Assembly (NCBI GenBank): GCA_009377525.1
Contig: WHTW01000006.1
Span: 1-40,000 of the forward strand
Direction: 5' to 3'
Length of the DNA: 40,000 bases
From: Rhodospirillales bacterium
Lineage (GTDB): Bacteria; Pseudomonadota; Alphaproteobacteria; Reyranellales; Reyranellaceae
Shown here: positions 6,289 through 21,583 of the stretch, piece after piece
How positions within the stretch are numbered: position 1 is the first letter of the stretch
How the letters are laid out: every line of letters begins with the position of its first letter
Position numbers and translations under genes: made by a program
Notes under the pieces: generated by a model
Told to the model about the DNA's origin: nothing
Seen by the model: the letters and a program-made list of their open reading frames with translations, nothing else
Databases searched by the model: none

Positions 6289-6363
<75 letters not shown>

Positions 6364-6447: not shown

Positions 6448-8163
6448 ATGGCGATCCTGTGCATGGCGCGACCGTGGAAGCATCCGAAGACTGGCGTCTA
6501 CTATTTCCGCCGGGTGATCCCCGAGGGACTGCGTCCGTTCGTTCCCGAGGGCGACACGGCCGCGCCCGAGCGGCGCCTAGCGAAGCACGAATACAAGCGC
6601 TCGCTCCACACGAAGGATGCACCCACGGCAAAGCGTCTCTATGCGGATGCCGCTGCGATTTGCGATGACTACTTCTCCTCACTGAGAGCCGCGAAGGAAC
6701 GAGCAGCCGCCACTGAGGTAGGAGGGCTCGCCAGCCAAGCGGCCGGCTCCAGGCACGCCACACCCGAGGCCTCGGCCACCGGGCACCCGACGACGTTCTC
6801 CCTCCGAGCGCTCGCAGCGGAGCTTGGTCAAGAGATCATCCAGCGCAACGCCGGGGCGCCGCCGGCTGCCGCATTCAAGAACAACCGAGCGATACCGCCG
6901 GGACCCTGGGGTACTCCGAGAGAACCTTGGGCCAGCCATCGATACGCCCTGGCGACCAGCCTTCGCGCGAAGATGCGGGCCAGTCAGCATGAGTACGTGA
7001 CCACACCTTCAAGGGAGTTCCTCGGGGCACGCGGCATTACTCTGTCGCCCGATGAACAGCAGTGGGAAGAGTTCTGCGAGCTTTCCTGCGAGGCGATCGA
7101 CGCGGCCCTAGAAACGCTCCAGCGACGCTACCGGCACGGTGACAACGACACTGCCACGAGCGACGCACCGTTGGTCCAGCGCTTCCCCGTAGGGATGCCT
7201 GAGAGCCGCCCGAGGGTTGCTATAGCGCCGCTAGGCGCGGCTATCACGGGCCTCATTGAGACGTGGGCGAAGGGGCGCGAAAACCCGAGACAACGAACAC
7301 GCGAGCGTTTCGCTCGAAGGCTTGAACAGTTCTCAGCCTTCCTCAAGCACGATGACGCGATGGCCGTCACAAGCAAAGACCTGAGACGTTGGCGTGACCA
7401 CCTTCGTAATGAGGGCCGCACGGCAAAGACTGTGAACGAGGATTGCGTTGCGGCGGTGACCACTGTCTTTCGGGCAGCATCGGCAGAGGAAGTTCTCCCG
7501 ACCTACCCCTTCCACGATTACAAGGCACTGAGAGAAGACAAAACGAAAGAGAACGCCCGCCGCCCCTACACCGAAGAGGAAGCCCGAAGGCTTCTCACTT
7601 GCGCTCGATTGCGCACGGACGCGCTACGCTGGCTGCCGTGGCTCATGGCCTATACCGGCGCGCGCATTGGCGAGGTTGCCCAGCTTCGCAAGGAAGACGT
7701 GAGAACCGAGCACGGCATTAAGGTCCTGCGGATCACGGGCGGCACTGAGAAGGGGCATGAGGTCAAGACCGGCTCGTCACGACGCGACGTACCGTTGCAC
7801 CGCGCGGTAATAGACGAAGGCTTCTTGAAGTACGTTGGCGGCGCGAAGGAGGGACCGCTCTTCTCCGACCTTCCGCCGGGCCGTCTCGGCAAGCGTGGGG
7901 ATGCGGCCTCCACTGAGTACCGCCGTTGGGCGCGCGGGGTGGTAGGCATAACGGACAAGCGGGCTGTGGCGCACTCTTGGCGTCACCGCATGGAAGACCA
8001 GCTACGCGAGATAGAGGCACCCGAGGAGGTAGCAGCGGCGATCACCGGCCGGACCCGCCAAGGGTCGCGGGCTGGATACGGCAAGGGACCGTCACTGGCG
8101 CTCCAGGCACGATGGCTGGCAAAGATACCGGCGGTGAAGCTCGGGGCGGACACCCGCACTTAG
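6448..8163 (+). CDS. int: Tyrosine-type site-specific integrase (571 aa)
   Basis: ATG at 6448 preceded by aggagagg; the track ORF start at 6319 lies inside the tRNA. N-terminus ARPWKHPKTGVYYFRRVIP is typical of alphaproteobacterial island integrases. Catalytic region: AYTGARIGEV...HSWRHRMEDQL...GYGKG (R..HxxR..Y). Confidence 0.9.
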   Translation: MAILCMARPWKHPKTGVYYFRRVIPEGLRPFVPEGDTAAPERRLAKHEYKRSLHTKDAPTAKRLYADAAAICDDYFSSLRAAKERAAATEVGGLASQAAGSRHATPEASATGHPTTFSLRALAAELGQEIIQRNAGAPPAAAFKNNRAIPPGPWGTPREPWASHRYALATSLRAKMRASQHEYVTTPSREFLGARGITLSPDEQQWEEFCELSCEAIDAALETLQRRYRHGDNDTATSDAPLVQRFPVGMPESRPRVAIAPLGAAITGLIETWAKGRENPRQRTRERFARRLEQFSAFLKHDDAMAVTSKDLRRWRDHLRNEGRTAKTVNEDCVAAVTTVFRAASAEEVLPTYPFHDYKALREDKTKENARRPYTEEEARRLLTCARLRTDALRWLPWLMAYTGARIGEVAQLRKEDVRTEHGIKVLRITGGTEKGHEVKTGSSRRDVPLHRAVIDEGFLKYVGGAKEGPLFSDLPPGRLGKRGDAASTEYRRWARGVVGITDKRAVAHSWRHRMEDQLREIEAPEEVAAAITGRTRQGSRAGYGKGPSLALQARWLAKIPAVKLGADTRT

Positions 8164-8172
8164 GCCCGAGCG

Positions 8173-8379
8173 GTGCACGATGCGTTCGGGACGACCCCGA
8201 CGAAGACCGCGAGGTTTGCCCAGATACTCCGCGAGGAGTTCGCCAAGATGTACGCCAGCGATCCATTTGAATGCTTGCGCGCGTCATTACGCTTCTGGGG
8301 CGTGACACTGCCCGAGGAGCCCGCCATGGGCACCCTGGACCCCGCCCAGATCGCCCACGCCGAATACCTCTTCGCGTAG
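8173..8379 (+). pseudogene. Relic of the C-terminus (motif C to end) of a second T7-type RNA polymerase
   Basis: VHDAFGTTPTKTARFAQILREEFAKMYA...EYLFA aligns with the end of the full-length RNAP in this island (VHDSFGTTPERAGDLAKVLRETFSEMYA...LYAFG) and with T7 RNAP IHDSFGT...FAFA. It begins 9 nt after the integrase stop, in the same frame. Confidence 0.7.
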
Positions 8380-8410
8380 CCCAATACATTGTAAAGGCTA
8401 TGCTTTCTCT

Positions 8411-8800
8411 CTGAGTATAACCATTGCGGCCCAAGCAACATCGGGACGGACACCGCCCCGCAAGGGAGCCCGCCATGTAACCCCATCAATCGGAGGTCAC
8501 GAATGCCCCATCTCACCATCCGCCGCTCGGTCGGCCAGATCACACTCACGGCCGCGCCTAGCCGCGCCTGTATCAGCGGACCGTCGTGAACCCCCGTTTG
8601 TCGCGATAACCCATTGGTGGCGCTGAGGGTTATTCGCTGAGTATAGGTAATGTGGGCCGGGCAACATCGGATTGACCCCCCTTGGCGGGGGCCAAAGCAG
8701 GGCTCAAGCCACTGCGTTTGCGATGCTTTACCTCTTTCGTGCCCATATGACGGACAGCCGCACCTAGCCGAGCACGAACGTCCCCCGTTCTCTTTTGTTT
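8411..8800 (+). repeat. Two diverged tandem copies (about 226-bp period) of a noncoding unit with conserved blocks
   Basis: CTGAGTATA at 8411 and 8637; GCAACATCGG at 8435 and 8661 (the same 24-nt offset in both copies); GCCGC(G/A)CCTAGCCG at 8551 and 8757; CCCCCGTT at 8591 and 8782. Confidence 0.6.
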
Positions 8801-8887
8801 TTGGACAGTGGGCCCCCGCCCCGCCGTCCGCACCTGTAGCAGTCCGCAACCCTGTCTCCTCTCTGTGGAGTTTCCAAACCAACTCAC

Positions 8888-9103
8888 ATGACAAATGATC
8901 TCATCTCTCTGGCCGACGCCGCCGCCGAGCTTCGCATTAGCACGAAGACCCTCGATAGGTGGCGACGTGCCGGCAAAGGCCCCGACTACCTTCGATCCGC
9001 AAGCGGCCACGTCCACTATAGCCGGCAGACCCTCGATACTTGGCGTGCACAGCAAGTGACCACCGAAAGCGTTCGCTACCTCTTGCTTGAGGGCGTTGCG
9101 TGA
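8888..9103 (+). CDS. AlpA/excisionase-like helix-turn-helix DNA-binding protein (71 aa)
   Basis: LISLADAAAELRISTKTLDRWRRAGKGPDY...HYSRQTLDTW has an HTH_17/MerR-type excisionase pattern. It is the first gene after the integrase module. Confidence 0.7.
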   Translation: MTNDLISLADAAAELRISTKTLDRWRRAGKGPDYLRSASGHVHYSRQTLDTWRAQQVTTESVRYLLLEGVA

Positions 9104-9784: not shown

Positions 9785-12700
9785 ATGGACGAGGCACTTC
9801 TAAATCGTATTCGAGCCAGCATAGCCGGCGCTCCAGTCCCGCCAGCCACTTCGCCACCGACAGCCTCGCCCAAGGCCGGCGCTATGGACGAAGCTACGAT
9901 GGAAAGAATTCGAGCCAGCATCGAGCGTGGGCGTACCGTCCCACCTCGCCCCACGGATCAAACTGCAATCGCGAACCCGACACACGCGGGCCTTCCACAG
10001 TCTGAGCCTCACAGCGCCGACGCCGCGCCCGGCCCGAACCTTGCTGCAGCCGTACAGGGCAACCGGGACACCCTCGGGATGCTCGCCAACACGCTCCTAG
10101 GGGGCGCCCGAGACGCTCTCCAGGGCACCCTCGAAACAGTCCATAGCGCAGCCGGCCTCGCGGGTGACGTAGCGGAGAGCATGGGCACGCTGCCCGATAG
10201 CTTCCCGCGGCCTACCGCCGACAACGCGCCGAAGCTTCCCGAAGTCCCCCGTGCGGACGAGAGCACGAACGAAGGCGTCGCCATGAACGTCGCCCGAGAC
10301 CTGGAGCGCTTCGTGCTCGGCTTCGTGGGTGGTGGTGCGATCCTGAGAGGTGCGGGAGTGGCGACGAACACCCTTCGAGGAGCGGCCGGCGCTGGCTTCG
10401 TGGGAGACTTCGTGGTCACGGGAGCCAACGACAACCGCTTGGTCGACCTCTTCGAGAAGGTGCCAGCGCTACGGGGGCCGTTCCTTGAGTACATCTCGAC
10501 GGACGGTGATGAGGACCTCCTCAAGCACAAGCTTGGCGCGGCCGTAGAGGGCCTGTTCTTCGGGGGAGCTATCGACGGGCTCCAAAGGATCGCTGGCGTT
10601 ATCCGAAGGTCCATCAAGGCGGAGAAGACGGGCGGTGCTGAGGCGGCTGAAAGGGTGATCCAAGAGTCAGCGGAGGAGATGCAGGAGGCTGCCACGGAGA
10701 TCAATGCGTGGAGCGGCGCACCTAGCGAGGCTATCGACCCAGGTGCTCCCGTGGCGACGCACCCACCGGTCCGGCTGGACGAACGTGGGCAAATCGAGAT
10801 GTTCCCCGAGGTGGTCCGCCGTGAGGAGGCGATCGAGGATATCCAGCTTCAAATCAAGGGCGACCGCTACCTCGACCCTGAGACAGGCAAAGAGAAGCTA
10901 CTTCCCATCTCCAATCGAGCGCGAGAGGAGTTGACCAGTGTTGCCGCCGATCCTAACGCGCCCTTGCACATCGACAAGCTCACCCCGGAGACCCGAGAAG
11001 AACTACTCCGTGCCCTTGCGTCGGACAATGAAGCGGCTCGCTTCTTCAATCCGAAGACTGTTCGCGGCAAGACGTTCGCGCTGGACGATGCGCGGCGGGC
11101 CGACTTCGACGCGGCTATGGAGCGCTCGCTCTCGATCCCGTATGCCACGCTGAAAGCCGAGAACCCCGGCGCGGCTATCGAGGACACCCTCAGCACCTTC
11201 CTGAACTACCGCTACATGGAGAGCGCCGATAGCGTGAAGGTGACGCTGGACGAGATGGCCACGGCTATGGAGCCTCAGGTTGCAAAGCACCTCGGCGGCT
11301 TTCCCCAGACGCACGCGCAAGTCCAGGAGACGGCAGGATGGCTCGGCATGAAGCCCGAAGTCCTCCTTGCATCACTGTCCCAGCAAGCACGCGCTGCCGA
11401 ACACATGCCCGCTCTTCTCGTGGCAGGTAAGACGTGGATACAAAGCCTCGCCCGCGACATTCACCAGATTAGCAAGGCGATCGATAGCGGCATGGCGACG
11501 GACACCGCGAAGATAGAGCTTGTGCGCCGGCAGGACATCCTTGCCGATCTCATCTCGACGTTGAAGTCCGTCCAGACAGCGAGCGCGCGCACGACAGCGG
11601 CGGGCAGGATCAGGACGAGCGACGCGCTCACCCATGAGGAAATGGGAACGCTGCTTCGCGAGGTGGGCGAAGACAACTTCAAGCTCATCAGCCGCAAGCT
11701 CGCGCTTACCGAGGGCAACCCGCAGGCGGTCATCTCCATCCTTGAGCCAACGTTCGGGCAGAAGTCGTGGGGCGTGGCGAACGAGTTCTGGATCAACGCG
11801 ATCCTCAGTGGCCCGGCAACGCACGTTATCAATCTCACGACGGGCTTGCGTAACACTGCCCTCTTCCCGCTCTTCAAGATCACTGGCGGCCTGCTTACGG
11901 GCGACATGAAGTCGGTCCGCATCGGCATCGGCCAGTACGCCGGCCTTCGTGGTGCGGTCTTCAACAGCTTCGAGATGGCCAAGCGGTCCCTCCTCACGGA
12001 GAACGCCTACGTTGATGCGAGCTTCCACCAGATCGAGCGCGAGCGGCTCTGGATCAAGGCGGACACCTTCAGCACGGACCCCAGCGGCACGCTTGGGCAA
12101 GGCATCGAGGCGCTCGGCACGGCCATTCGTATGCCGTCGCGGTTCCTCACGGCTGAGGATGAGTTTTTGAAGCAGTTGACCTATCGTGCTTCGGTGACGG
12201 CGAGGGCTCACGAGGAAGCTATTGAGCGGGGATTGTCGGACAACCGGACGGTCTCCTACTTCGTGGACGGCGAGAAGAAGATGATATCCGAGGTGGATGA
12301 GTACGTCCGTGATCGGATGCAAGAAGCGTTTCACCCCAGGATGGAACACGGGCTAGACCAAGCGGCCCTTCGGGATGCTCGCCGTGCAACGTTCACGAGC
12401 CCGCTCAAGACAGCGACTTGGGGCAACATGACCAGTCTTGGCGAGATAGCCCAGCAAGCCGCAGCAAGGGCACCGTGGATACGACACACGATCCTGCCGT
12501 TCACGAGGGTGCCCACGAACATCTTCCGCGAGATGATTTTGGAGAGCCCACTGGCTCCGATCCGGAAGCAGTTCTGGACCGACCTGAGGGCCGGCGGAGA
12601 AGCACGGTCCGACGCTATCGGGCGCGTGGCGCTCGGCACAACATTCTGGACTGGCGCGGCAATGCTCGCGAGCGAAGGGATCATTACCGGCAAGGGTCCT

Positions 12701-13711
12701 ACTGATCCGAAGCTACAGAAGCAGTGGCGAGCGGCGGGCAATCAGCCGTATTCAATCCGGTTCGCGAGCATGGGGCCGGACGGCAAGGACCTGTTCATCT
12801 CCTACAACAGGTTCGACCCGACAGCCGGTGTGCTCGCGCTGGCGGCCGACTTTGCGTACATCGCCGCTCACGTAGACGAGCGCACGCAAGATGCGCTGGC
12901 CATGACGCTCACGCTCACGCTGGCGAACAATCTCAACAGCAGAACTTATCTTCGTAGCCTGACGGAGTTGACTTCGATCCTCGGGTCTAATGATCGCGCC
13001 GGCCCGCATCTAGTGGAGCGCTGGTTGAATTCGCGGGCTGCTTCCTACGTACCCCGGATCGTGTCGGCGGTTAATCCAGATGATACGTTGAGGGATGCCC
13101 GTGACGCGCTGGAAGCGATCCAGGCGAGGATACCGGGATTGAGTGACGGACTACCGCCTCGGCGAGACACCTTCGGCGAGCCCATCGTGCCGTCCGTTGG
13201 CTGGCCGTACAGCCAGGTCAATCCCTTTGCAATAGCGGTGGGCAAGGATGGAGCGGCGCGGCGCGAGCTAGGTTACTGGGCTGAGAGCGAAACCCGCAGT
13301 CAATTTGAGATGCCCTCGCCGAAGATCGATGGACTTATCGATCTACGCGACGCCAAGAACTCACAGACTGGCCAGAGCGGCTATGACCGCTGGCTCGAAA
13401 TCCTGACTGAGCCAAGGTTCGGAGGAAAGACCGCAGAGGAGCGGATTGACGATATCGTGGCAAGCGATGGCTACAGGAATTTGAAGGAGCGTGGCGTTGA
13501 AAGCCCGATCTATCGCCGGCACCCCGCCGTTGAATTCTTGAGAGAGCAACTTGGATCACACTACGGCATTGCCCGCGAACTCATGCTTGCGGAAGTCGGC
13601 TTCGAAGACCTCCGCGCCGCGTTGCAAATCTATGAGGCGAGCAAGCGCGCCGTCCCTGTGGGCGCCGTAGCACCGTCCAACCCGGCGCTTGATCAGTTGC
13701 TAAAGCGGTAG
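9785..13711 (+). CDS. Large orphan protein (1308 aa), function unknown; possibly a phage internal/ejected virion-type protein
   Basis: Uninterrupted 3.9-kb ORF with non-shadow composition. The N-terminus has two MDEAxxxRIRASI modules and an Ala/Pro-rich linker. I found no NTPase, polymerase or lytic transglycosylase motif. Confidence 0.85.
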   Translation: MDEALLNRIRASIAGAPVPPATSPPTASPKAGAMDEATMERIRASIERGRTVPPRPTDQTAIANPTHAGLPQSEPHSADAAPGPNLAAAVQGNRDTLGMLANTLLGGARDALQGTLETVHSAAGLAGDVAESMGTLPDSFPRPTADNAPKLPEVPRADESTNEGVAMNVARDLERFVLGFVGGGAILRGAGVATNTLRGAAGAGFVGDFVVTGANDNRLVDLFEKVPALRGPFLEYISTDGDEDLLKHKLGAAVEGLFFGGAIDGLQRIAGVIRRSIKAEKTGGAEAAERVIQESAEEMQEAATEINAWSGAPSEAIDPGAPVATHPPVRLDERGQIEMFPEVVRREEAIEDIQLQIKGDRYLDPETGKEKLLPISNRAREELTSVAADPNAPLHIDKLTPETREELLRALASDNEAARFFNPKTVRGKTFALDDARRADFDAAMERSLSIPYATLKAENPGAAIEDTLSTFLNYRYMESADSVKVTLDEMATAMEPQVAKHLGGFPQTHAQVQETAGWLGMKPEVLLASLSQQARAAEHMPALLVAGKTWIQSLARDIHQISKAIDSGMATDTAKIELVRRQDILADLISTLKSVQTASARTTAAGRIRTSDALTHEEMGTLLREVGEDNFKLISRKLALTEGNPQAVISILEPTFGQKSWGVANEFWINAILSGPATHVINLTTGLRNTALFPLFKITGGLLTGDMKSVRIGIGQYAGLRGAVFNSFEMAKRSLLTENAYVDASFHQIERERLWIKADTFSTDPSGTLGQGIEALGTAIRMPSRFLTAEDEFLKQLTYRASVTARAHEEAIERGLSDNRTVSYFVDGEKKMISEVDEYVRDRMQEAFHPRMEHGLDQAALRDARRATFTSPLKTATWGNMTSLGEIAQQAAARAPWIRHTILPFTRVPTNIFREMILESPLAPIRKQFWTDLRAGGEARSDAIGRVALGTTFWTGAAMLASEGIITGKGPTDPKLQKQWRAAGNQPYSIRFASMGPDGKDLFISYNRFDPTAGVLALAADFAYIAAHVDERTQDALAMTLTLTLANNLNSRTYLRSLTELTSILGSNDRAGPHLVERWLNSRAASYVPRIVSAVNPDDTLRDARDALEAIQARIPGLSDGLPPRRDTFGEPIVPSVGWPYSQVNPFAIAVGKDGAARRELGYWAESETRSQFEMPSPKIDGLIDLRDAKNSQTGQSGYDRWLEILTEPRFGGKTAEERIDDIVASDGYRNLKERGVESPIYRRHPAVEFLREQLGSHYGIARELMLAEVGFEDLRAALQIYEASKRAVPVGAVAPSNPALDQLLKR

Positions 13712-13714
13712 CCC

Positions 13715-14218
13715 GTGACTACCGCCAAGTTACACTCAGCTGAAGAGCTAGCAGTGGTGCGGGCAACGTTTGCGTTGGACGGGGACGAGCTTCTTCGCAA
13801 AGGCAAGCCGGTCAAGCACCGGGCCAATGCCAACAAGTCGCCGTACAAATCCGTCGAATTCAGGTTGGGCAACGCGCGAGTGCATTGGAAGCTGTCTCGG
13901 CTGAAATTCTTCTTAGCTCATGGCTGGCTCCCGCCCGTGGTCGACCACAGAAACGGAGACAGGTTGAACGACAGTCTTGCTAATCTTCGGGCAGCCTCTT
14001 ATGCCCAGAACAACCAAAATTCGCGACGCCGAAAGACCCGTCTTGGTCTCCCGAGAGGCGTGGAGCGGAACGGCAAACGGTTTGTGGCTAGGCTCAAAAC
14101 GGATGGCCGCATGAAATACCTGGGAACTTACGACACCCCCGAAGCCGCGTCTCTCGCCGTCCAGGAGAAGAGCAAAGAGCTTCGTGGCGCTTTCCATCGG
14201 TACAGGCGGAAGGGGTAA
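13715..14218 (+). CDS. HNH endonuclease with C-terminal AP2 DNA-binding domain (homing-endonuclease type, 167 aa)
   Basis: VDHRNGDRLNDSLANLRAASYAQNNQN (HNH_3 pattern) followed by GVERNGKRFVARLKTDGRMKYLGTYDTPEAASLAV (AP2 pattern). Starts 4 nt after the 1308-aa gene. Confidence 0.8.
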   Translation: MTTAKLHSAEELAVVRATFALDGDELLRKGKPVKHRANANKSPYKSVEFRLGNARVHWKLSRLKFFLAHGWLPPVVDHRNGDRLNDSLANLRAASYAQNNQNSRRRKTRLGLPRGVERNGKRFVARLKTDGRMKYLGTYDTPEAASLAVQEKSKELRGAFHRYRRKG

Positions 14219-14410
14219 AGGGCCATCGGCTCCTACCAATGCACTTCCCGCAATCGGCGAAGGCGGAGAGCGAGAGCGAGAAGATATGTGCGGCTCGCCG
14301 AGGGCGCTCCCGATAACTCCCTCAATAGAGAGGTGACTGATTTGCCCGATACCAAGCCGACACGGGACGATTTGATAGAAGCTGGATTTGAAAGTCCGTC
14401 GACGAAGGAG

Positions 14411-14464
14411 CCGAGCGAAGCGAGCTACTCACCGCCGCCAACGCGGAAGCCGAGCGAAGCGAGG
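14411..14464 (+). repeat. Two direct copies of the CCGAGCGAAGCGAG(G) island motif
   Basis: Copies at 14411-14424 and 14450-14464. The same motif occurs at 19326-19340 and, as a partial copy, at 9409-9420. The G-variant occurs at 9546, 16390 and 19521. Confidence 0.8.
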
Positions 14465-14612
14465 CCTTCGCCGCCCAACAAGGTTCCACCGGGGCTCCCT
14501 CAGCCGCGCCCCGTTGACGGCGACTTCCATTCAAGCCCCGTTCGTCGCTCTTGGGATCGCCTCCGCATAGCCGCCGTTCCATCACCCAACAAAAAGGGAT
14601 AACCCAACCTCC

Positions 14613-15111: not shown

Positions 15112-15411
15112 ATGACGGCTAAGACACGCGTGCTCGACGTTGAGGCCCGCATCGCGGTACTTGAGGTACTTCTAGAGCAGTCCCCAGCCTCTCCCCCGCT
15201 GGCTCCCGGCGGCCCCGTGAAGATGCGCGTGAGCAACTTGGAAGTTCGCCTGGAGGCACTGGAGGCGGCTGTCGGTGGTGGCTATGAGCCGCCGTTCGAT
15301 CCGAGCGCGACGTTACCGCTTGCATGGTGGTCGCCGTCGCCGTGGAAGAGAAGGTTGGAGAAGCTGGAGGCGCGCTTGGAGGCACTGGAGACGTTCGTAG
15401 CAGCCCTTTGA
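15112..15411 (+). CDS. Coiled-coil protein, SPWKR paralog A (99 aa)
   Basis: Internal ATG at 15112. Heptad-like repeats VEARIAVLE / LEVRLEALE / LEARLEALE and the motif WWSPSPWKRRLE. Paralogous to the next gene. Confidence 0.55.
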   Translation: MTAKTRVLDVEARIAVLEVLLEQSPASPPLAPGGPVKMRVSNLEVRLEALEAAVGGGYEPPFDPSATLPLAWWSPSPWKRRLEKLEARLEALETFVAAL

Positions 15412-15412
15412 G

Positions 15413-15712
15413 TTGACCGTGGCTCAGTATCGAGGACTGCCCCCAAAGGCGCGAGTGGAAGCCGTTGAGGCGCGCGTGGCGGCCTTGGAAAGCGGTGGCG
15501 GTGGGGCCTCCGATCTCTCCGTGATAGCCGCGCCCCGCTTCGCTATGGTGCACTTGTCAAACTTGGAGACGCGCATGAGGGCGCTTGAGATCACGCAAGA
15601 GGGATATAGCGCCGCCCGGACGTGGCCATCGTGGTCCCCGTGGAAGCGTCTAGAGGCACTTGAGACGCGAGTGGCAGCCTTGGAGAGCGCGAGCCCTAGC
15701 ACGTCGCCGTAG
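15413..15712 (+). CDS. Coiled-coil protein, SPWKR paralog B (99 aa)
   Basis: Starts 2 nt after paralog A (TTG, or GTG a few codons in). VEARVAALE / LETRMRALE / LETRVAALE and WSPWKRLE. Same length as paralog A. Confidence 0.55.
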   Translation: MTVAQYRGLPPKARVEAVEARVAALESGGGGASDLSVIAAPRFAMVHLSNLETRMRALEITQEGYSAARTWPSWSPWKRLEALETRVAALESASPSTSP

Positions 15713-15856: not shown

Positions 15857-16351
15857 ATGCCGATAGGTGCCAGTCTTATTGCCAAAGCCGAAGTCCGAAC
15901 GCTTCTTTGTGTTGATGACAAATGCCTTCACGCGTGGCGCTCGCGTCATGCCGGTCCTGCTCGGGAAGGGGACGGATACGACCTCGCCCAAGTTGAGGAA
16001 GTGAGAGCACAAATGCTCATACTCGGCAGCTATGGGCTCCAGGTGAAGAATGCCGAGCGGCCGTTGGGCTCGATAACCTTCTCACGAGAAGACGACACTG
16101 AGACACTAGGCGCGGCCCAAGTTAAGAAACTGTTGGCCATCGATCAAAGCATCTTGTCTCACTGGCTTGCCGCTCTCCCATTTCCCATTGGGCCAATACC
16201 GAAGAGGACGAAGATCAAAGGCCCGTGGAAGTACCGGAAGAACCAAGTGCTAGAAGTGCGGGCTGCGCTTCTCATTCTAGGTGATAGGTACAAGTTGGGC
16301 CTAACCGACACTCCTCATTTCCTGACACACGCGGGACCGACTTGGCAGTAA
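15857..16351 (+). CDS. Hypothetical protein with two internally duplicated HTH-like modules (164 aa)
   Basis: Module 1: KAEVRTLLCVDDKCLHAWRSR...VEEVRAQMLILG. Module 2: AAQVKKLLAIDQSILSHWLAAL...VLEVRAALLILG. This is the most AT-rich coding stretch of the island. Confidence 0.55.
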   Translation: MPIGASLIAKAEVRTLLCVDDKCLHAWRSRHAGPAREGDGYDLAQVEEVRAQMLILGSYGLQVKNAERPLGSITFSREDDTETLGAAQVKKLLAIDQSILSHWLAALPFPIGPIPKRTKIKGPWKYRKNQVLEVRAALLILGDRYKLGLTDTPHFLTHAGPTWQ

Positions 16352-18978
16352 TCCCGGTGGACGCCGACTTGATAGCGCCGCTAGAGGAGCCCTCGCTCCG
16401 CTCGGGCGCGGCTATGCGCGAGCAGGAGAACTTGGAGCGCGAAGCGTTTGAAACGGGAAGGCGGCGGCTCAATGCATTCCTAAGGAAAGCCCGAGAGACA
16501 GGCACGGAGAGCTTCACAGCGCCGGGACAGTGGATTGTCCGGCAAGTGATCGGCCCCATGGCGGATATGCTGTCGCAAGAGTTTGTGACCAGCAATAGCG
16601 CCCGTGCCACGAGAGGCGGAGCGATGATCCACGCCATCAAGGACATGGACCCGCTCTTCCTTTGCGCCGTTGCGGCCCGCACGGCTCTAAACGGTGCGTG
16701 GTCTCGGGACAACGGAGGAAAGCTCTCGCTAACGCTGGTGTCCGCCAAGATCGGCGCGGCCATCGAAGACGAGTGGCGGTGGCACGAGTGGCGAAAGCTC
16801 GACCCAAAGCAAGCGCGATGGGCACAAGACGTTGTGAACGAAGGTCGTAGTGCGGGCGGAGCCCGTTACAAGCGAGCAGCGGCGCGCAAGGTGGGCGGCT
16901 TGTTCCTCCCGGAAGAGCTATTGGCTCCGTGGCCGTCCGACAAGCAAGTAGCGCTCGGGTTGCGCTTCGTGGACTACATGGTTAGCCCGTCAGTCGGCCT
17001 TTTCGAGGTGACTAAAATGTTGTCCGGACGCCGTGGACCCTCAAAGGCCAAGCTCGCACTTAAGCTCAGCCCAATCGCAGTCCAGCGAGCCGACGAAGTC
17101 GTAGACCTCTTCGCCACTTCTCAGGCGCTCACGTGGCCGCTCATCGTTCCGCCAAAGCCCTGGACGGCGCCTACTGGAGGCGGATTTTGGTTCCGCGAAA
17201 GGACAGCCACCGACATTTGCCCGGAAGGTCTCAAGCCGTTCCCGCTGGTCCGATGGGCAAGCCCCGAGCAACGCAAGGCGCTCGATCGCGCTGATCTCTC
17301 CACCGTGTACGCGGGTCTCAACGCGGTCCAAGAGACTCCCTGGAGGATCAACAAGCGCGTCCTTGGGGTTTGGTCTGCGATGCTCGACGGCGGCTTCGGC
17401 CCAACAGACGATATCGTCGAGTGGGATAACGAAGAGCCGCCCGAGCGCGTCCCCGATGACGAGTGGGAAGACATGTCGGACGAAGACCGCCTCGAACACC
17501 GGCACGAAATATCAGAAGTCTTTGGACGAAACCGCAAGGCCGTCTCAAAGCGCGTGCGTCAGCATCGCCTCAAGCGTGTGGTTGATCGCTTCGCCAAGTA
17601 TCCGGCGATCTACTTTGCTTACAACTGTGACAGACGAGGCCGCGTCTATACATCGTCTTCGGATATCTCGCCTCAAGGGAGCCGTCTAGAGAAGGGACTG
17701 CTGGAGTTTGCGGTCGGGGATGAGCTTTCGGATACAGGCGAGGCCCCCTCGCCGATCCGCTCGGGCGTGTACTGGCTCAAGGTGGTAGTGGCGAACTACT
17801 ACGGCTTCGACAAGGTGAGCTTCGATGACCGGGCGAAGTGGACAGACGCAAACAAAGAGATGATCCTCTCGGTAGCAGCCCGTCCTCTTGATGACCAAAG
17901 ATGGTGGAGCGCGAGCGAGAAAACGAGATGGCAGTTCCTTGCCGCGTGCTTTGCCTATCAGGAGTGGAAGGAAGAGACGACGGCCGGCCGGCGGTACGTC
18001 TGCCACTTGCCGGTGATGCTCGACGGCACTTGCAATGGGCTCCAGCATTGGGCGGCATTATTGCGTGACGAGAAGGTTGGGCAGTTCGTCAATCTTGTGC
18101 CCGGTGACAAGCCCATGGACCTCTACGGGAGGGTTGCCAGTAGGGCGAGGGAGGAGATCGAAAGAGCGGTCGAGAGACGGCAACAGTGGGCGCTCGAATG
18201 CCAAGCGCTCGGGATCGACCGCAACTTCGCCAAGCCGGTCGTCATGGGCTTCCCTTACGGGCGGACCCGGTGGTCGATCTACGAGGAGATTGAGAAGGCG
18301 TTGCGGCGGAAGATAGAGAAGAGCGACGGCTCAAGTCCAAACTGGTGGACCGACAAAGAGGCTCGCTCGGGTGTCGTCAAGTTCCTCGTGGAGACGCTTT
18401 GGACGGCCACGATTGCGGAGACTGAGAAGCCCGATGCGGGGCGCAAGTATCTACAAGCGGTTGCCCAAGAGTGGAAGAAGGCCGCACCGGATACGCCGTT
18501 GGCTTGGATGAGCCCGAGCGGCTTCCCCGTGGTCCTGGCGCGGCGTGACCAAGGGCCAATCGAAGGGCGCGTCCGGGAGAAGCTCTTGGGAAAGCTTGTC
18601 ATGCCCAGATTGTGGGCCGGCAAGGGTGCGCTCTACTGGTCGAAGCTGATCTCAGCCATTGCACCCGGCTTCATTCATAGCTTGGACGGAGCCCACTTGG
18701 TCATCGCGCTTGGGGCGGCGGCCCGTTCGGAGATCAATCAGCTAGCGTGTGTGCACGATAGTTTTGGGACAACCCCGGAACGGGCTGGTGATTTGGCGAA
18801 GGTGCTCCGGGAGACGTTCTCGGAGATGTACGCCGAGGGTGATCCCATAGCCGCCCTTGAGGAAGCCCTCAGGCAAGCCGGCGGGCACCCGAACGCAGCA
18901 CCGATCCCGCACGGTCGACCGGAACCGGGGGGCCTTGACGTGGGCGCCATGCGCGGTTCGCTCTACGCGTTCGGGTAA
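16342..18978 (+). CDS. T7-like single-subunit DNA-dependent RNA polymerase (about 873-878 aa; start uncertain: TTG 16342, GTG 16357 or ATG 16414)
   Basis: Motif A [22 protein letters not shown] matches T7 [34 protein letters not shown] matches T7 WFPYNMDWRGRVY. Motif B region is [10 protein letters not shown] and motif C is VHDSFGT. The C-terminus is LYAFG. The length is close to the 883 aa of T7 RNAP. Confidence 0.93.
   Translation: [878 protein letters not shown]
16390..16406 (-). repeat. Copy of the CCCGAGCGGAGCGAGGG island motif (inverted orientation) inside the RNAP 5' end
   Basis: ccctcgctccgctcggg is the reverse complement of the 9546 motif, one C shorter. Confidence 0.75.
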
Positions 18979-18992
18979 AGGGCGGTTGCGGA

Positions 18993-19060
18993 CCCGTACA
19001 GACGATCCAGGGCTTCGCGTGGGGAAAAACCCTCCGGGAAACCTAAATCGTCTGTACGGG
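18993..19060 (+). repeat. 14-bp perfect inverted repeat with a 40-nt spacer just downstream of the RNAP stop
   Basis: cccgtacagacgat (18993-19006) and atcgtctgtacggg (19047-19060). No U-run follows. Confidence 0.7.
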
Positions 19061-19208
19061 CTCCCTAGCCTAGCTAGCGTCGATCAGGGCACTTGACAGG
19101 CCGGCGGGAAGTCGATAACGGCCGCACCACCGACTGTGGCCCGCTTGCCATATTTAGTTAGCCATCTACCTTGCGGAGAGAGATCACTCAAGGACTTCCC
19201 CGAGAGCT

Positions 19209-19560
19209 TAATGAGGAAGCCCACCGGAGGTGAAGGGCTCATGGCTAATGAGGAGCCCACGTAGATAGATTATCAATGAAACTATCCTACCTCTTCCCGA
19301 GGCCATCAGGCCGAAGGGCTCTCTTCCGAGCGAAGCGAGGCTACTACCCTAGAGGGATCATGAGGGAAGCCCACTGACAGTGGATGTCCTCATGGCGTCC
19401 TAGAGGTAAGGGAAGATAGCCCCTCGGCCCGAAGGCCTCGGGGAAGGGAAGGATAGCCCACCTATAAAGAACCAATGGAAGGATAGCCCTAGAGCCGGTT
19501 CAGGAGCTAGCTCAAGAGACAGCCCCTCGCTCCGCTCGGGGATCAGGATTGATAGCCCAT
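19209..19560 (+). repeat. Array of 7 same-orientation short degenerate repeats (two subfamilies ending in GCCC)
   Basis: T(A/C)ATGAGG(G)A(A)GCCCAC at 19209, 19246 and 19358. GGA(A/T)(G/T)(G)ATAGCCC at 19410, 19446, 19476 and 19546. Spacing is irregular (30-112 bp). Confidence 0.75.
19521..19540 (-). repeat. 20-bp motif (right member of the perfect inverted pair)
   Basis: agcccctcgctccgctcggg is the reverse complement of 9546-9565. Confidence 0.9.
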
Positions 19561-19562
19561 GG

Positions 19563-19838
19563 ATGATCCACCGTCGACGAAGCTCTCGACGAAACCCCCG
19601 TTGTTCCCGAGACCTCCACCGAGGCGGAGCCGATGGGCTACCGAGACGTTCCCAGGGACTTCGCCCGGAGGCCCCCTGGGCCATGGCTGGTGATGGCACC
19701 ACTCGACGCAAACATCTGGGTACCTACGACACTCCCGAAGAAGCCGGAGCGGTCGCCAAAGCAGCCCGCGTGGAGCTTGCAGGCGTGTTCCTGCCCGGCC
19801 CCACTCGATACCGCGCGAAGATGGCGTCCGGCCGATGA
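19563..19838 (+). pseudogene. Relic of an AP2-domain (homing endonuclease-type) gene
   Basis: ...RPEAPWAMAGDGTTRRKHLGTYDTPEEAGAVAKAARVELAGVF parallels GRMKYLGTYDTPEAASLAVQEKSKELRGAF of the intact HNH-AP2 gene. No HNH part is present and the upstream frame is junk. Confidence 0.5.
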
Positions 19839-20150
19839 TTTGGGCTGGGGAAAAATTCCAGTTGGGAATATACGCAAACCCCTAAACGTATCACCTCGGC
19901 GCGCGCGACCCCCCTCTACCCGGCCCGGCCGCCCCTGGCTGGGGCTGGGCACCGCTTCTACGTGTGGGCTCCAGCGAAGCGTTTACGTGCCGCCGCCCAC
20001 GGGAAATCCTTCGCCGCGCCGCGCCCACACCAAGCGGAGCCGAAGGGGTCATCCGTCACTCAATCGGTCACCTCTCTGCCCTAACTCACTGAGCGTGCTC
20101 GGCGCACATGGGATTGCTCGTCCCATAGCGCCGCTTGGGCGCGGCTATCT

Positions 20151-20249
20151 GGGCAGAAAACCCCATCGAACTGCCCTCGGGAAACCCCAATGAATTCAAC
20201 GGCACACTCCCTCGGATTTGCGTGGGCAGAAACCAATTGATTGTTGCCC
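20151..20249 (+). promoter_or_regulatory. Candidate recombinase-binding (res-like) dyads upstream of the serine recombinase
   Basis: GGGCAGAAAA-N10-CTGCCC (20151-20176) and GGGCAGAAAC-CAATTG-ATTGTTGCCC (20224-20249; imperfect dyad centred on CAATTG), ending 43 nt before the ATG. Confidence 0.35.
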
Positions 20250-20291
20250 AGCCGTGGCGTACAAGTGGGCACCTACCAAGGAGCACACACG

Positions 20292-20915
20292 ATGACCACC
20301 AGCACCACCCCGAGGAAGCCCAAGAGAGCCGCCCTGTACCTCCGCGTATCGACCGACCGGCAGACCGTCGAGAACCAGCGGCAAGCCCTGGAGGCCATCG
20401 CAGGCCATCGTGGATGGGATATCGTCGCCACCTACGGTGACAGAGGAGTTAGCGGCGCGAAGGGCCGAAAGGATCGCCCCGAGTTTGACCGGATGCTTAG
20501 CGAAGCGGGACGCGGCAAGTTCGATGTAGTGATGGCCTTCGCCCTGGACCGCATCGGCCGCTCCCTCGGGGACTTGCTTCACACGATCCGCCATCTTGAA
20601 GAGTGCAAGGTCGACCTGTTCATAGACAAACAGATGCTCGATACGACAACGCCCCAAGGGAAGCTCTTGTATGCGGTGACCGGCGCGTTCGCCGAGTTTG
20701 AGCGCGACATGATCGTCCAACGCGTCAACGCTGGGCTAGACCGTGCGCGCACCGCTGGCGTCACCTTGGGCCGCCCGAGGATCGCTGAGAAGACCGAGGC
20801 AGCCATCCGCAAGGCCATCACCAAGGGTGACAAGGGCAAGCACAAGCTCGCCGCTCAGTTCGGCGTGGGCTCGGGGACGGTGGCGCGCATCAAGGCGGAG
20901 ATGGGCCGCACCTAA
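20292..20915 (+). CDS. Serine recombinase, resolvase/invertase family (207 aa)
   Basis: ATG at 20292 preceded by aaggag. AALYLRVSTDRQ (catalytic Ser), VVMAFALDRIGRS, FAEFERDMIVQRVNAGL and a C-terminal HTH (LAAQFGVGSGTVARI). Confidence 0.9.
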   Translation: MTTSTTPRKPKRAALYLRVSTDRQTVENQRQALEAIAGHRGWDIVATYGDRGVSGAKGRKDRPEFDRMLSEAGRGKFDVVMAFALDRIGRSLGDLLHTIRHLEECKVDLFIDKQMLDTTTPQGKLLYAVTGAFAEFERDMIVQRVNAGLDRARTAGVTLGRPRIAEKTEAAIRKAITKGDKGKHKLAAQFGVGSGTVARIKAEMGRT

Positions 20916-21434: not shown

Positions 21435-21560
21435 GGTTAGGTACCCGCTCACCCGAAAGGCGGGCACTTCCAAGAGGTCCTCCAGGGTGGTACAAGGGAG
21501 TACAAGCGCGGCTTACCTAAGTCCTTGATTTATAGGCACTTGGGCATGGTCCACCGGCAA

Positions 21561-21583
21561 TTCAATCCTGTCCGGCAGCACCA
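21561..21583 (+). repeat. attR: 23-bp direct repeat (displaced tRNA-Thr 3' end)
   Basis: ttcaatcctgtccggcagcacca is identical to 6341-6363. Confidence 0.85.

Follow-up and report, generated by a model that had tools for sequence, protein, structure and literature searches.

Short repeats behind the gene of a T7-type RNA polymerase in a decayed prophage island: a probable cis-acting region that may hold leftover promoters

Which role could be played by a dense array of short repeats that lies directly behind the gene of a phage-type RNA polymerase in a bacterial chromosome? The array in question is located at positions 19209-19560 of a 40,000-nucleotide (nt) stretch of contig WHTW01000006.1 of a Rhodospirillales bacterium (assembly GCA_009377525.1), hereafter called the window, and follows an intact gene for a T7-type single-subunit RNA polymerase (RNAP; 16414-18978, + strand). 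Both are part of an island in which every gene is found on the + strand. A first-pass annotation had compared the array to the region behind gene 1 of phage T7 and had considered tandem promoters, a replication origin or iterons. By analogy, the array is most like the T7 control spacer after gene 1 and is a probable cis-acting repeat region of a T7-like phage, which may hold leftover promoters for the adjacent polymerase. For the more specific proposal, in which relic or weak tandem promoters are combined with RNA hairpins, we estimate a probability of roughly 30%.

The repeats are real and occur far above chance. All seven copies listed in the first-pass annotation were recovered on the + strand, and an additional eighth + strand copy, which had been missed, was found at 19513-19524 (AGAGACAGCCCC). 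The copies can be assigned to two families. Family A has the pattern ATGAGG-N1-3-GCCCAC, with matches starting at 19211, 19248 and 19360 and no other match in the 40 kb; these three compare with 0.02 expected, and none of 100 shuffles reached three. Its members are A1 (TAATGAGGAAGCCCAC, 19209-19224), A2 (TAATGAGGA-GCCCAC, 19246-19260), which carries a 1-nt deletion, and A3 (TCATGAGGGAAGCCCAC, 19359-19374), which carries a 1-nt insertion and pairs with 19380-19395 as the 5' arm of a local hairpin. Family B consists of B1 (GGGAAG-ATAGCCCC, 19410-19423), again with a 1-nt deletion, B2 (GGAAGGATAGCCCA, 19447-19460) and B3 (GGAAGGATAGCCCT, 19477-19490), both of the form GGAAGGATAGCCC(A), the eighth copy B5, which continues into CCCTCGCTCCGCTCGGG (19513-19540), and B4 (GGATTGATAGCCCA, 19546-19559), which reads GGATTGATAGCCC and adjoins the ATG at 19560/19563. 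With at most one mismatch, GGAWKGATAGCCC is matched three times (0.19 expected), and GATAGCCC is present seven times in the window against 0.92 expected, with four of these copies within 150 base pairs (bp).

AGCCC occurs eight times on the + strand within 350 bp, and AGCCC(A)C is all that the two families have in common, as their upstream halves are wholly different. B1 to B3 are alike over 15-16 nt, B4 matches at 11 of 14 positions and B5 at fewer, and three copies (A2, A3, B1) have a 1-nt indel between their purine tract and AGCCC. The spacing between the cores (36, 114, 50, 37, 30, 36 and 33 nt) is irregular and without helical phasing. The edges of the cores are sharp: B2 and B3 are identical at 15 of 16 positions over AAKGGAAGGATAGCCC, but only at 3 of the next 14. 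By our own arithmetic, a drifting 30-nt duplication would yield this pattern with a probability of about 7e-5. The cores were thus either kept or inserted as modules, which renders pure debris unlikely. The same orientation ascribed to the repeats holds for all eight cores; however, degenerate inverted copies are present at four places. The 'related strings' noted at 8376, 15716 and 19155 do exist, but they share only 7-9 bases with the repeats, which is chance level, because by our own arithmetic an island of 15 kb should yield hundreds of such 9-mer pairs at random.

The array lies within a spacer of 584 bp (18979-19562) between the RNAP gene and a fragment of an AP2-type open reading frame (ORF), and the description of this DNA as non-coding was borne out. 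GC content is flat across the codon positions (0.55-0.58), 5-9 stop codons interrupt each frame, and in a six-frame PHROG scan of 18979-19842, the AP2 piece of the downstream ORF was the sole match. A decayed coding region was rejected on these grounds and is also disfavoured by the lack of similarity to the N-terminus of the intact HNH-AP2 endonuclease of the island. Seven of the eight AGCCC cores (19218-19554) fall into one mod-3 phase (binomial P about 0.008), which is the frame of the downstream AP2 fragment and would read Ser-Pro; an open frame or a coding signal is not associated with it. Several known types of repeat elements were considered and dismissed. Tandem Repeats Finder returned nothing even at a score of 30. 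Type III toxin-antitoxin loci and clustered regularly interspaced short palindromic repeats (CRISPR) have repeats that are near-perfect and of fixed period (about 36 nt in the former, units of 23-47 nt with spacers in the latter) beside a toxin or cas gene, whereas the period is irregular here and scans of the island ORFs revealed neither a ToxN-like nor a Cas gene. A miniature inverted-repeat transposable element or a repetitive extragenic palindromic element of the host was discarded, as there is neither a second copy of the palindrome in the window nor a target-site duplication. None of the array motifs occurs in the 25 kb of the window that belong to the host.

The gene upstream of the array had been called an RNAP gene, and this assignment was verified by a Pfam match to RNA_pol (4e-79) and a full-length match to phrog_414 (4e-182). 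Its likely start is the ATG at 16414, with the frame being open from 16342. Alignment to T7 RNAP revealed intact motifs A (DGTCNGLQH, D537), B (K/Y) and C (VHDSFGT, D812), and judging from these motifs, the enzyme is catalytically complete. Its best relatives among 5.8 billion proteins and among annotated phages are at most 32% identical, which by this measure makes it an orphan. No record of its own was found for the RNAP protein of the window, and its use as a query did not retrieve relatives of the island in genome, viral or metagenome contigs.

In the proposed mechanism, the array would be the non-coding control spacer that once lay behind the polymerase gene in a temperate T7-like phage, of which a decayed remnant of 15 kb is left. 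The family B sites (13-16 nt, consensus AAGGGAAGGATA|GCCC) would be tandem promoters, or relics of them, for the adjacent RNAP, and one related site would be located just upstream of the RNAP gene itself. Transcription is envisaged to proceed rightward, on the strand of all island genes, and to start at the G of ATA|GCCC. A 75-nt hairpin and a 175-nt palindrome in the spacer would act on the RNA, either in processing or in termination, as R1.1 does after T7 gene 1. In T7, the spacer between genes 1 and 1.1 contains hairpin-forming RNA, namely the RNase III site R1.1.

Several observations are in favour of promoters. A T7-type RNAP with intact motifs is encoded in a prophage remnant together with a virion protein, an HNH endonuclease and an integrase. 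All eight copies are on the coding strand, and the 15-16 nt shared by B1 to B3 correspond to the length of a promoter. The end of the B sites, ATA|G, matches positions -3 to +1 of the T7 promoter AATACGACTCACTATAG; if transcription starts at the G of GCCC, family B would read GATA|G and family A GGAA|G, which can be compared with the AT-rich -4 to -1 positions and the purine at +1. The sharp core edges argue for recognition sites rather than drifting duplications. Just upstream of the RNAP ATG, the block CTAGAGGAGCCCTCGCTCCGCTCGGG (16381-16406, + strand) shares a perfect 17-nt core, CCCTCGCTCCGCTCGGG, with 19524-19540 of the array, and both copies are preceded by AGAG..AGCCC; the distance from this 17-nt block is 8 nt to the RNAP ATG in one copy and 22 nt to the AP2 ORF in the other. 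GATARCCCA sites are found on the + strand of three other island spacers (8605, 14598 and 15715), yet they are only weakly enriched; ten + strand matches are present in the window, all ten within the island. In addition, the spacer at 8380-8887, which follows a fragment of a second RNAP gene, has its own two-copy TATA|G motif: the repeat CTGAGTATA(A/G), whose two copies (8411 and 8637) are followed by about 35 nt that are likewise similar, ends in TATA|G, as does the T7 promoter. The combination of a temperate T7-like element, an integrase and a promoter-like site immediately before the RNAP gene is reminiscent of phage LUZ100, in which a phage promoter directly precedes this gene (PMC10134795).

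A number of findings weigh against this proposal. Eight sites within 350 bp are without precedent among T7-type promoter clusters, and as families A and B differ across the upstream half, a single polymerase is unlikely to read both. T7-type promoters are contiguous, near-identical sequences of about 17-23 bp without indels, while the junction of purine tract and AGCCC is altered by 1-nt indels in three copies of the array, and the -17 to -10 positions are neither conserved nor AT-rich. No good copy precedes any other island gene. Outside the array, only weak sites are found (8605, 14598, 15715 and 16386), albeit on the correct coding strand; since the element is heavily deleted and possibly derived from two phages, the absence of dispersed copies is weak evidence. 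B4 and the site at 14598 would give rise to leaders of 5-11 nt without a ribosome-binding site, and the degenerate inverted copies do not fit promoters either. The LUZ100 promoters, eight in number with a 17-bp motif, were mapped by 5'-end sequencing and are spread over the genome (PMC10134795), whereas the putative sites described here are clustered in one spacer. Judging from the indels in three copies and from an inverted duplication, some of the copies have presumably lost their function.

The nearest relatives of the RNAP point in the same direction. The two closest ones are encoded on temperate T7-like contigs with an integrase gene just upstream of the RNAP gene, but only 22-90 nt follow the RNAP gene there and no array is present. 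On the nearest of these contigs (L083; 1888-4600 and 6690-6780), a 21-nt repeat, GTGAGGCATCCCCTGCCTAGA, occurs in five copies in spacers, each within a unit of about 55 nt upstream of early genes, and thus provides an example of a dispersed 21-nt spacer family. By eye, the same contig also has a tRNA-like sequence between the integrase and RNAP genes, which may be attP. No relative of the array was found in genomes, metagenomes, phages or plasmids. Neither blastn of 18979-20240 against phages and plasmids nor a literature search with the motif strings produced a match or a relevant paper, and the two-copy family B pattern AAGGATAGCCC-N15-45-AAGGATAGCCC returned 25 matches, all of which are unrelated perfect tandem repeats.

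The comparison to T7 itself is mixed. In the T7 record, the promoters phi1.1A and phi1.1B are located 26 and 101 nt after gene 1, and both spacers have tandem short repeats on the coding strand directly after a single-subunit RNAP gene. However, T7 has two identical 17-mers (17/17, within promoters of 17-23 nt) that are 75 nt apart in a spacer of 185 nt, while the array consists of eight sites of 13-16 nt that belong to two families and contain indels, in a spacer of 584 nt with a 175-nt palindrome. It also lacks an AT-rich unwinding stretch, and its motif is almost absent elsewhere in the element. The origin considered in the first pass would be expected to have promoters followed by a markedly AT-rich region, as in the primary origin of T7; no AT-rich stretch was found in the spacer, where the lowest GC content over 60-nt windows is 0.48. 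On the - strand, the A-like sequence CCTCATTAAG is similar to the T3 promoter CCCTCACTAAAG; as its distance to a G varies among the copies and all genes are on the + strand, the similarity was judged coincidental. A more far-reaching version of the promoter proposal is highly speculative. It holds that an orphan, divergent RNAP was kept intact together with its own multi-site cassette and recognizes an unusually short promoter, GGAAGGATA|GCCC; the two would form a new orthogonal RNAP-promoter pair, possibly a domesticated module that drives a structured RNA and is autoregulated via the upstream site.

The spacer also has a strong potential for folding, which had been missed in the first pass along with the inverted copies. 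The degenerate inverted copies at 19232-19244, 19282-19291, 19316-19327 and 19380-19393 pair with A1, B2, B1 and A3, respectively, and thereby build an imperfect palindrome of 175 nt (19282-19456) and two smaller hairpins. The arms of the palindrome, 19282-19327 and 19411-19456, are 46 nt long and 83% complementary; its right arm contains B1 and B2, and its tip the A3 hairpin. Its RNA fold has a predicted energy of -104 kcal/mol (z -7.8), and the DNA fold has a z-score of -6.0. A second hairpin of 75 nt (18990-19064, + strand, -46.6 kcal/mol, z -6.25) starts 12 nt past the RNAP stop codon; it is not followed by a U-run and was not called as an intrinsic terminator.

These structures have led us to consider that the + strand is transcribed into a structured leader or non-coding RNA, in which the repeats would form the arms of hairpins or bind proteins via GGA/purine motifs, and would serve in processing, attenuation or protein titration. 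Besides the two main hairpins, the whole spacer folds better than shuffled sequences (z -5.6), A1, A3, B1, B2 and B5 are paired in the minimum-energy fold, and the + strand is strongly purine-rich at 19400-19520. The inverted A-like copy at 19232-19244 (GAAGGGCTCATGG on the - strand, read from the sequence) can pair alternatively with A1 or A2, and a 17-codon ORF, MRKPTGGEGLMANEEPT (19211-19264), covers both; this layout resembles that of an attenuator. However, the - strand folds equally well (z -5.8), a G-U bias towards one strand is not seen among the mismatches of the long arms (two versus three wobble-compatible transitions by hand count), and B3 and B4 are unpaired. A known RNA family was dismissed, as Rfam gave no match at the gathering score or even at E<=5, and no homologues were found. 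Taken together, a structured RNA as the main purpose of the repeats is decidedly improbable.

Binding sites for a DNA-binding protein of the island offer another explanation, which is unlikely. The repeats would be operator- or iteron-like sites with AGCCC(A)C as the recognized core, and would control the RNAP gene and downstream genes. Candidates for the protein are the HNH-AP2 endonuclease (13715-14218), a double-helix-turn-helix (HTH) protein encoded just upstream of the RNAP gene (15857-16351) and an Xis/AlpA-like HTH protein (8888-9103). The plant GCC box, AGCCGCC, resembles AGCCCAC in that both have a short GC-rich core. In agreement with such sites, the common core of the repeats comprises just 5-9 nt and is GC-rich, and AP2 domains have been reported to bind short G/C-rich motifs (bioRxiv 10.64898/2026.02.23.707548). 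Copies in both orientations are tolerable for a binding site, but not for a promoter. The AGCCC blocks before the RNAP ATG and before the AP2 ORF, the sharp core edges and the presence of several DNA-binding proteins encoded in the island also fit this explanation. On the other hand, the spacing is irregular and not helically phased, and the 8-10 nt conserved upstream of the core in each family exceed what a single AP2 domain would need, which also sets the array apart from the GCC box.

The neighbouring AP2-only ORF is of little help to the binding-site explanation. It has 91 codons (19563-19838, + strand), matches phrog_99 over 36 residues (2e-5) and is 35% identical to the C-terminus of the island HNH-AP2 protein, with a GC content by codon position of 0.73/0.65/0.60, but no homologue was found at E<=0.001. 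It looks decayed and is probably a fragment of an HNH-AP2 endonuclease. True iterons, as considered in the first pass, are unlikely, because no replication-initiator or primase family was matched among the island ORFs scanned with Pfam and PHROGs; iterons are also near-identical, phased repeats of 17-22 bp next to an initiator gene, and neither feature was seen here.

The architecture of the array is best matched by the genome ends of T7-like phages. In T7, 11 copies of CCTAAAG are found on one strand in the first 340 bp (0.2 expected), and in the Rhizobium phage Pasto, at least eight CACCCATCGG-type copies are present in and beside the 271-bp terminal repeat. These arrays are found on the flanks of the terminal repeat, where they presumably function in concatemer processing or terminase recognition. 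Like the array of the island, they consist of eight to eleven one-strand copies with a core of 5-10 nt, spread irregularly and with sub-variants over 250-350 bp of non-coding DNA. It could therefore be proposed that a genome-end array, involved in the concatemer junction or in packaging, was moved beside the RNAP gene by a large deletion. A deletion junction is plausible in this gene-poor region of 1.26 kb, since the remnant has no matched replication, head, tail or terminase genes. Chung, Nardone and Hinkle reportedly proposed in 1990 that a processing hairpin is formed by an inverted repeat close to the concatemer junction of T7.

In contrast to these similarities, the location differs. The arrays of T7 and Pasto lie at the terminal repeat, which a T7-type map places between the late and early genes and upstream of the RNAP gene; in the island, this would correspond to 14219-14612, while the array is found after the RNAP gene. 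This lowers the claim, although a deletion could have moved the array. The copies are also spaced more widely (30-114 nt compared with the 12-25 nt typical of T7 and Pasto), inverted copies and a long palindrome are present, and no terminal repeat can be recognized in the remnant. A displaced genome end is thus quite unlikely.

A last explanation assumes that the array has no present function and is the debris of local direct and inverted duplications, possibly together with dispersed repeat modules that colonize spacers. The surrounding 1.26 kb are without an intact gene, the copies contain indels, and the 46-nt arms of the palindrome represent an inverted duplication with 83% identity. In addition, two types of repeat modules are scattered in the spacers of the island, and one of them even sits inside a copy of the other. 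This is opposed by the sharp core edges, by the excess of family A and by the common phase of the cores, which make mere debris very improbable.

The first of these modules, M3, is an element of 16-20 nt, CCGAGCG(A/G)AGCGAGG(GGCT), with a predicted hairpin CC-GA-GC-[GNA]-GC-GA-GG. Seven copies are found in spacer-like DNA of the island in both orientations: 9409, about 9546, 14411, 14450 and 19326 on the + strand, and 16390-16406 and 19524-19540 on the - strand. The copy within the palindrome of the array reads CCGAGCGAAGCGAGGC (19326-19341), and the continuation of B5 is an M3 element on the - strand. The exact 20-mer was found in none of the viral contigs, but in 50 metagenome contigs from about 30 unrelated contexts with GC contents of 0.44-0.73, some of which contain two to three copies or loop variants; a common neighbouring gene or conserved flanks were not detected in these contigs. 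The occurrences may represent one family or convergent GC-rich hairpins; by chance, perhaps about 10 would be expected in high-GC data. Two further sequences were dropped: CTAGAG is not enriched (7 versus 8.5 expected), and the GCGAAGC mini-hairpin is a heptamer that is common throughout the GC-rich window.

The second module is an imperfect palindrome, ATAGCGCCGCT-(A / TG / 21-nt insert)-GGCGCGGCTAT, which is present in three copies: inside the integrase gene (7222-7244), just upstream of the RNAP ATG (16372-16415) and 95 nt upstream of a serine recombinase gene (20125-20148). The copy next to the RNAP gene is interrupted in its centre by one M3 element, and together with the copy at 20125-20148 it flanks the RNAP gene and the array. 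The pattern has no match in viral contigs. The palindromes may be regarded as candidate sites for an operator or a recombinase.

Should the array consist of promoters, these would define the specificity of a polymerase without close relatives, which could become a useful orthogonal expression part, and they would indicate that a transcription module still works in what a T7-like phage has left behind in the chromosome. Genome-end repeats or operators, on the other hand, would shed light on the decay of temperate T7-like prophages and on their recombination at tRNA sites. In both cases, the relevance is local, as the array belongs to a singleton island in a decaying element and no long-standing question depends on it.

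The island itself is bounded by a repeat of the 3' end of a tRNA gene. The tRNA-Thr(GGT) gene is located at 6289-6363, and its last 29 nt (attL, 6335-6363, + strand) recur with 93% identity at 21555-21583 (attR, + strand), which delimits 15.2 kb. Following the tRNA, a tyrosine integrase is encoded at 6448-8163. A second, different single-subunit RNAP is represented by a C-terminal fragment of 68 residues that starts 9 nt past the integrase stop codon (8173-8379; phrog_414, 2e-12); the fragment is 37% identical to the full RNAP and ends in ...EYLFA. Further genes encode a full-length T7-type internal virion protein of 1308 residues (gp16-like, 9785-13711; phrog_6651, 2e-49), the HNH-AP2 endonuclease, which is intact, and a small serine recombinase (20241-20915). 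Scans of the island ORFs against Pfam and PHROGs thus matched integrase, RNAP, HNH, virion protein, excisionase-like HTH and serine recombinase families; several ORFs had no match, and none matched capsid, portal, tail, terminase or replication genes. Judging from this gene content, the island is what extensive deletion has left of one or two temperate T7-like prophages. The second RNAP fragment, which has its own repeat-bearing spacer (8173-8887), suggests that two successive T7-like phages used this tRNA site. The presence of an intact virion protein next to an intact RNAP gene in such a remnant may indicate that some genes were kept by selection.

Some minor observations concern the remaining parts of the island. 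Two adjacent ORFs of 99 codons each (15112-15411 and 15413-15712) had no family match; they look like paralogues, with LEARLEALE-type coiled-coil repeats and a common WSPWKR..LE motif. Within the 40 kb, the pentamers TGCTG and CTGCT accumulate to 9-10 copies in a single segment of 350 bp, which is probably a coding repeat. A role of the array as res sites of the serine recombinase was set aside, since 700 bp separate it from the recombinase gene, and this gene is directly preceded by repeats of its own. These consist of the direct repeat TGGGCAGAAA(A)CC at 20150 and 20223 and the inverted sequence GTTGCCCAGCC, and they may be the res- or hix-like sites of the recombinase itself.

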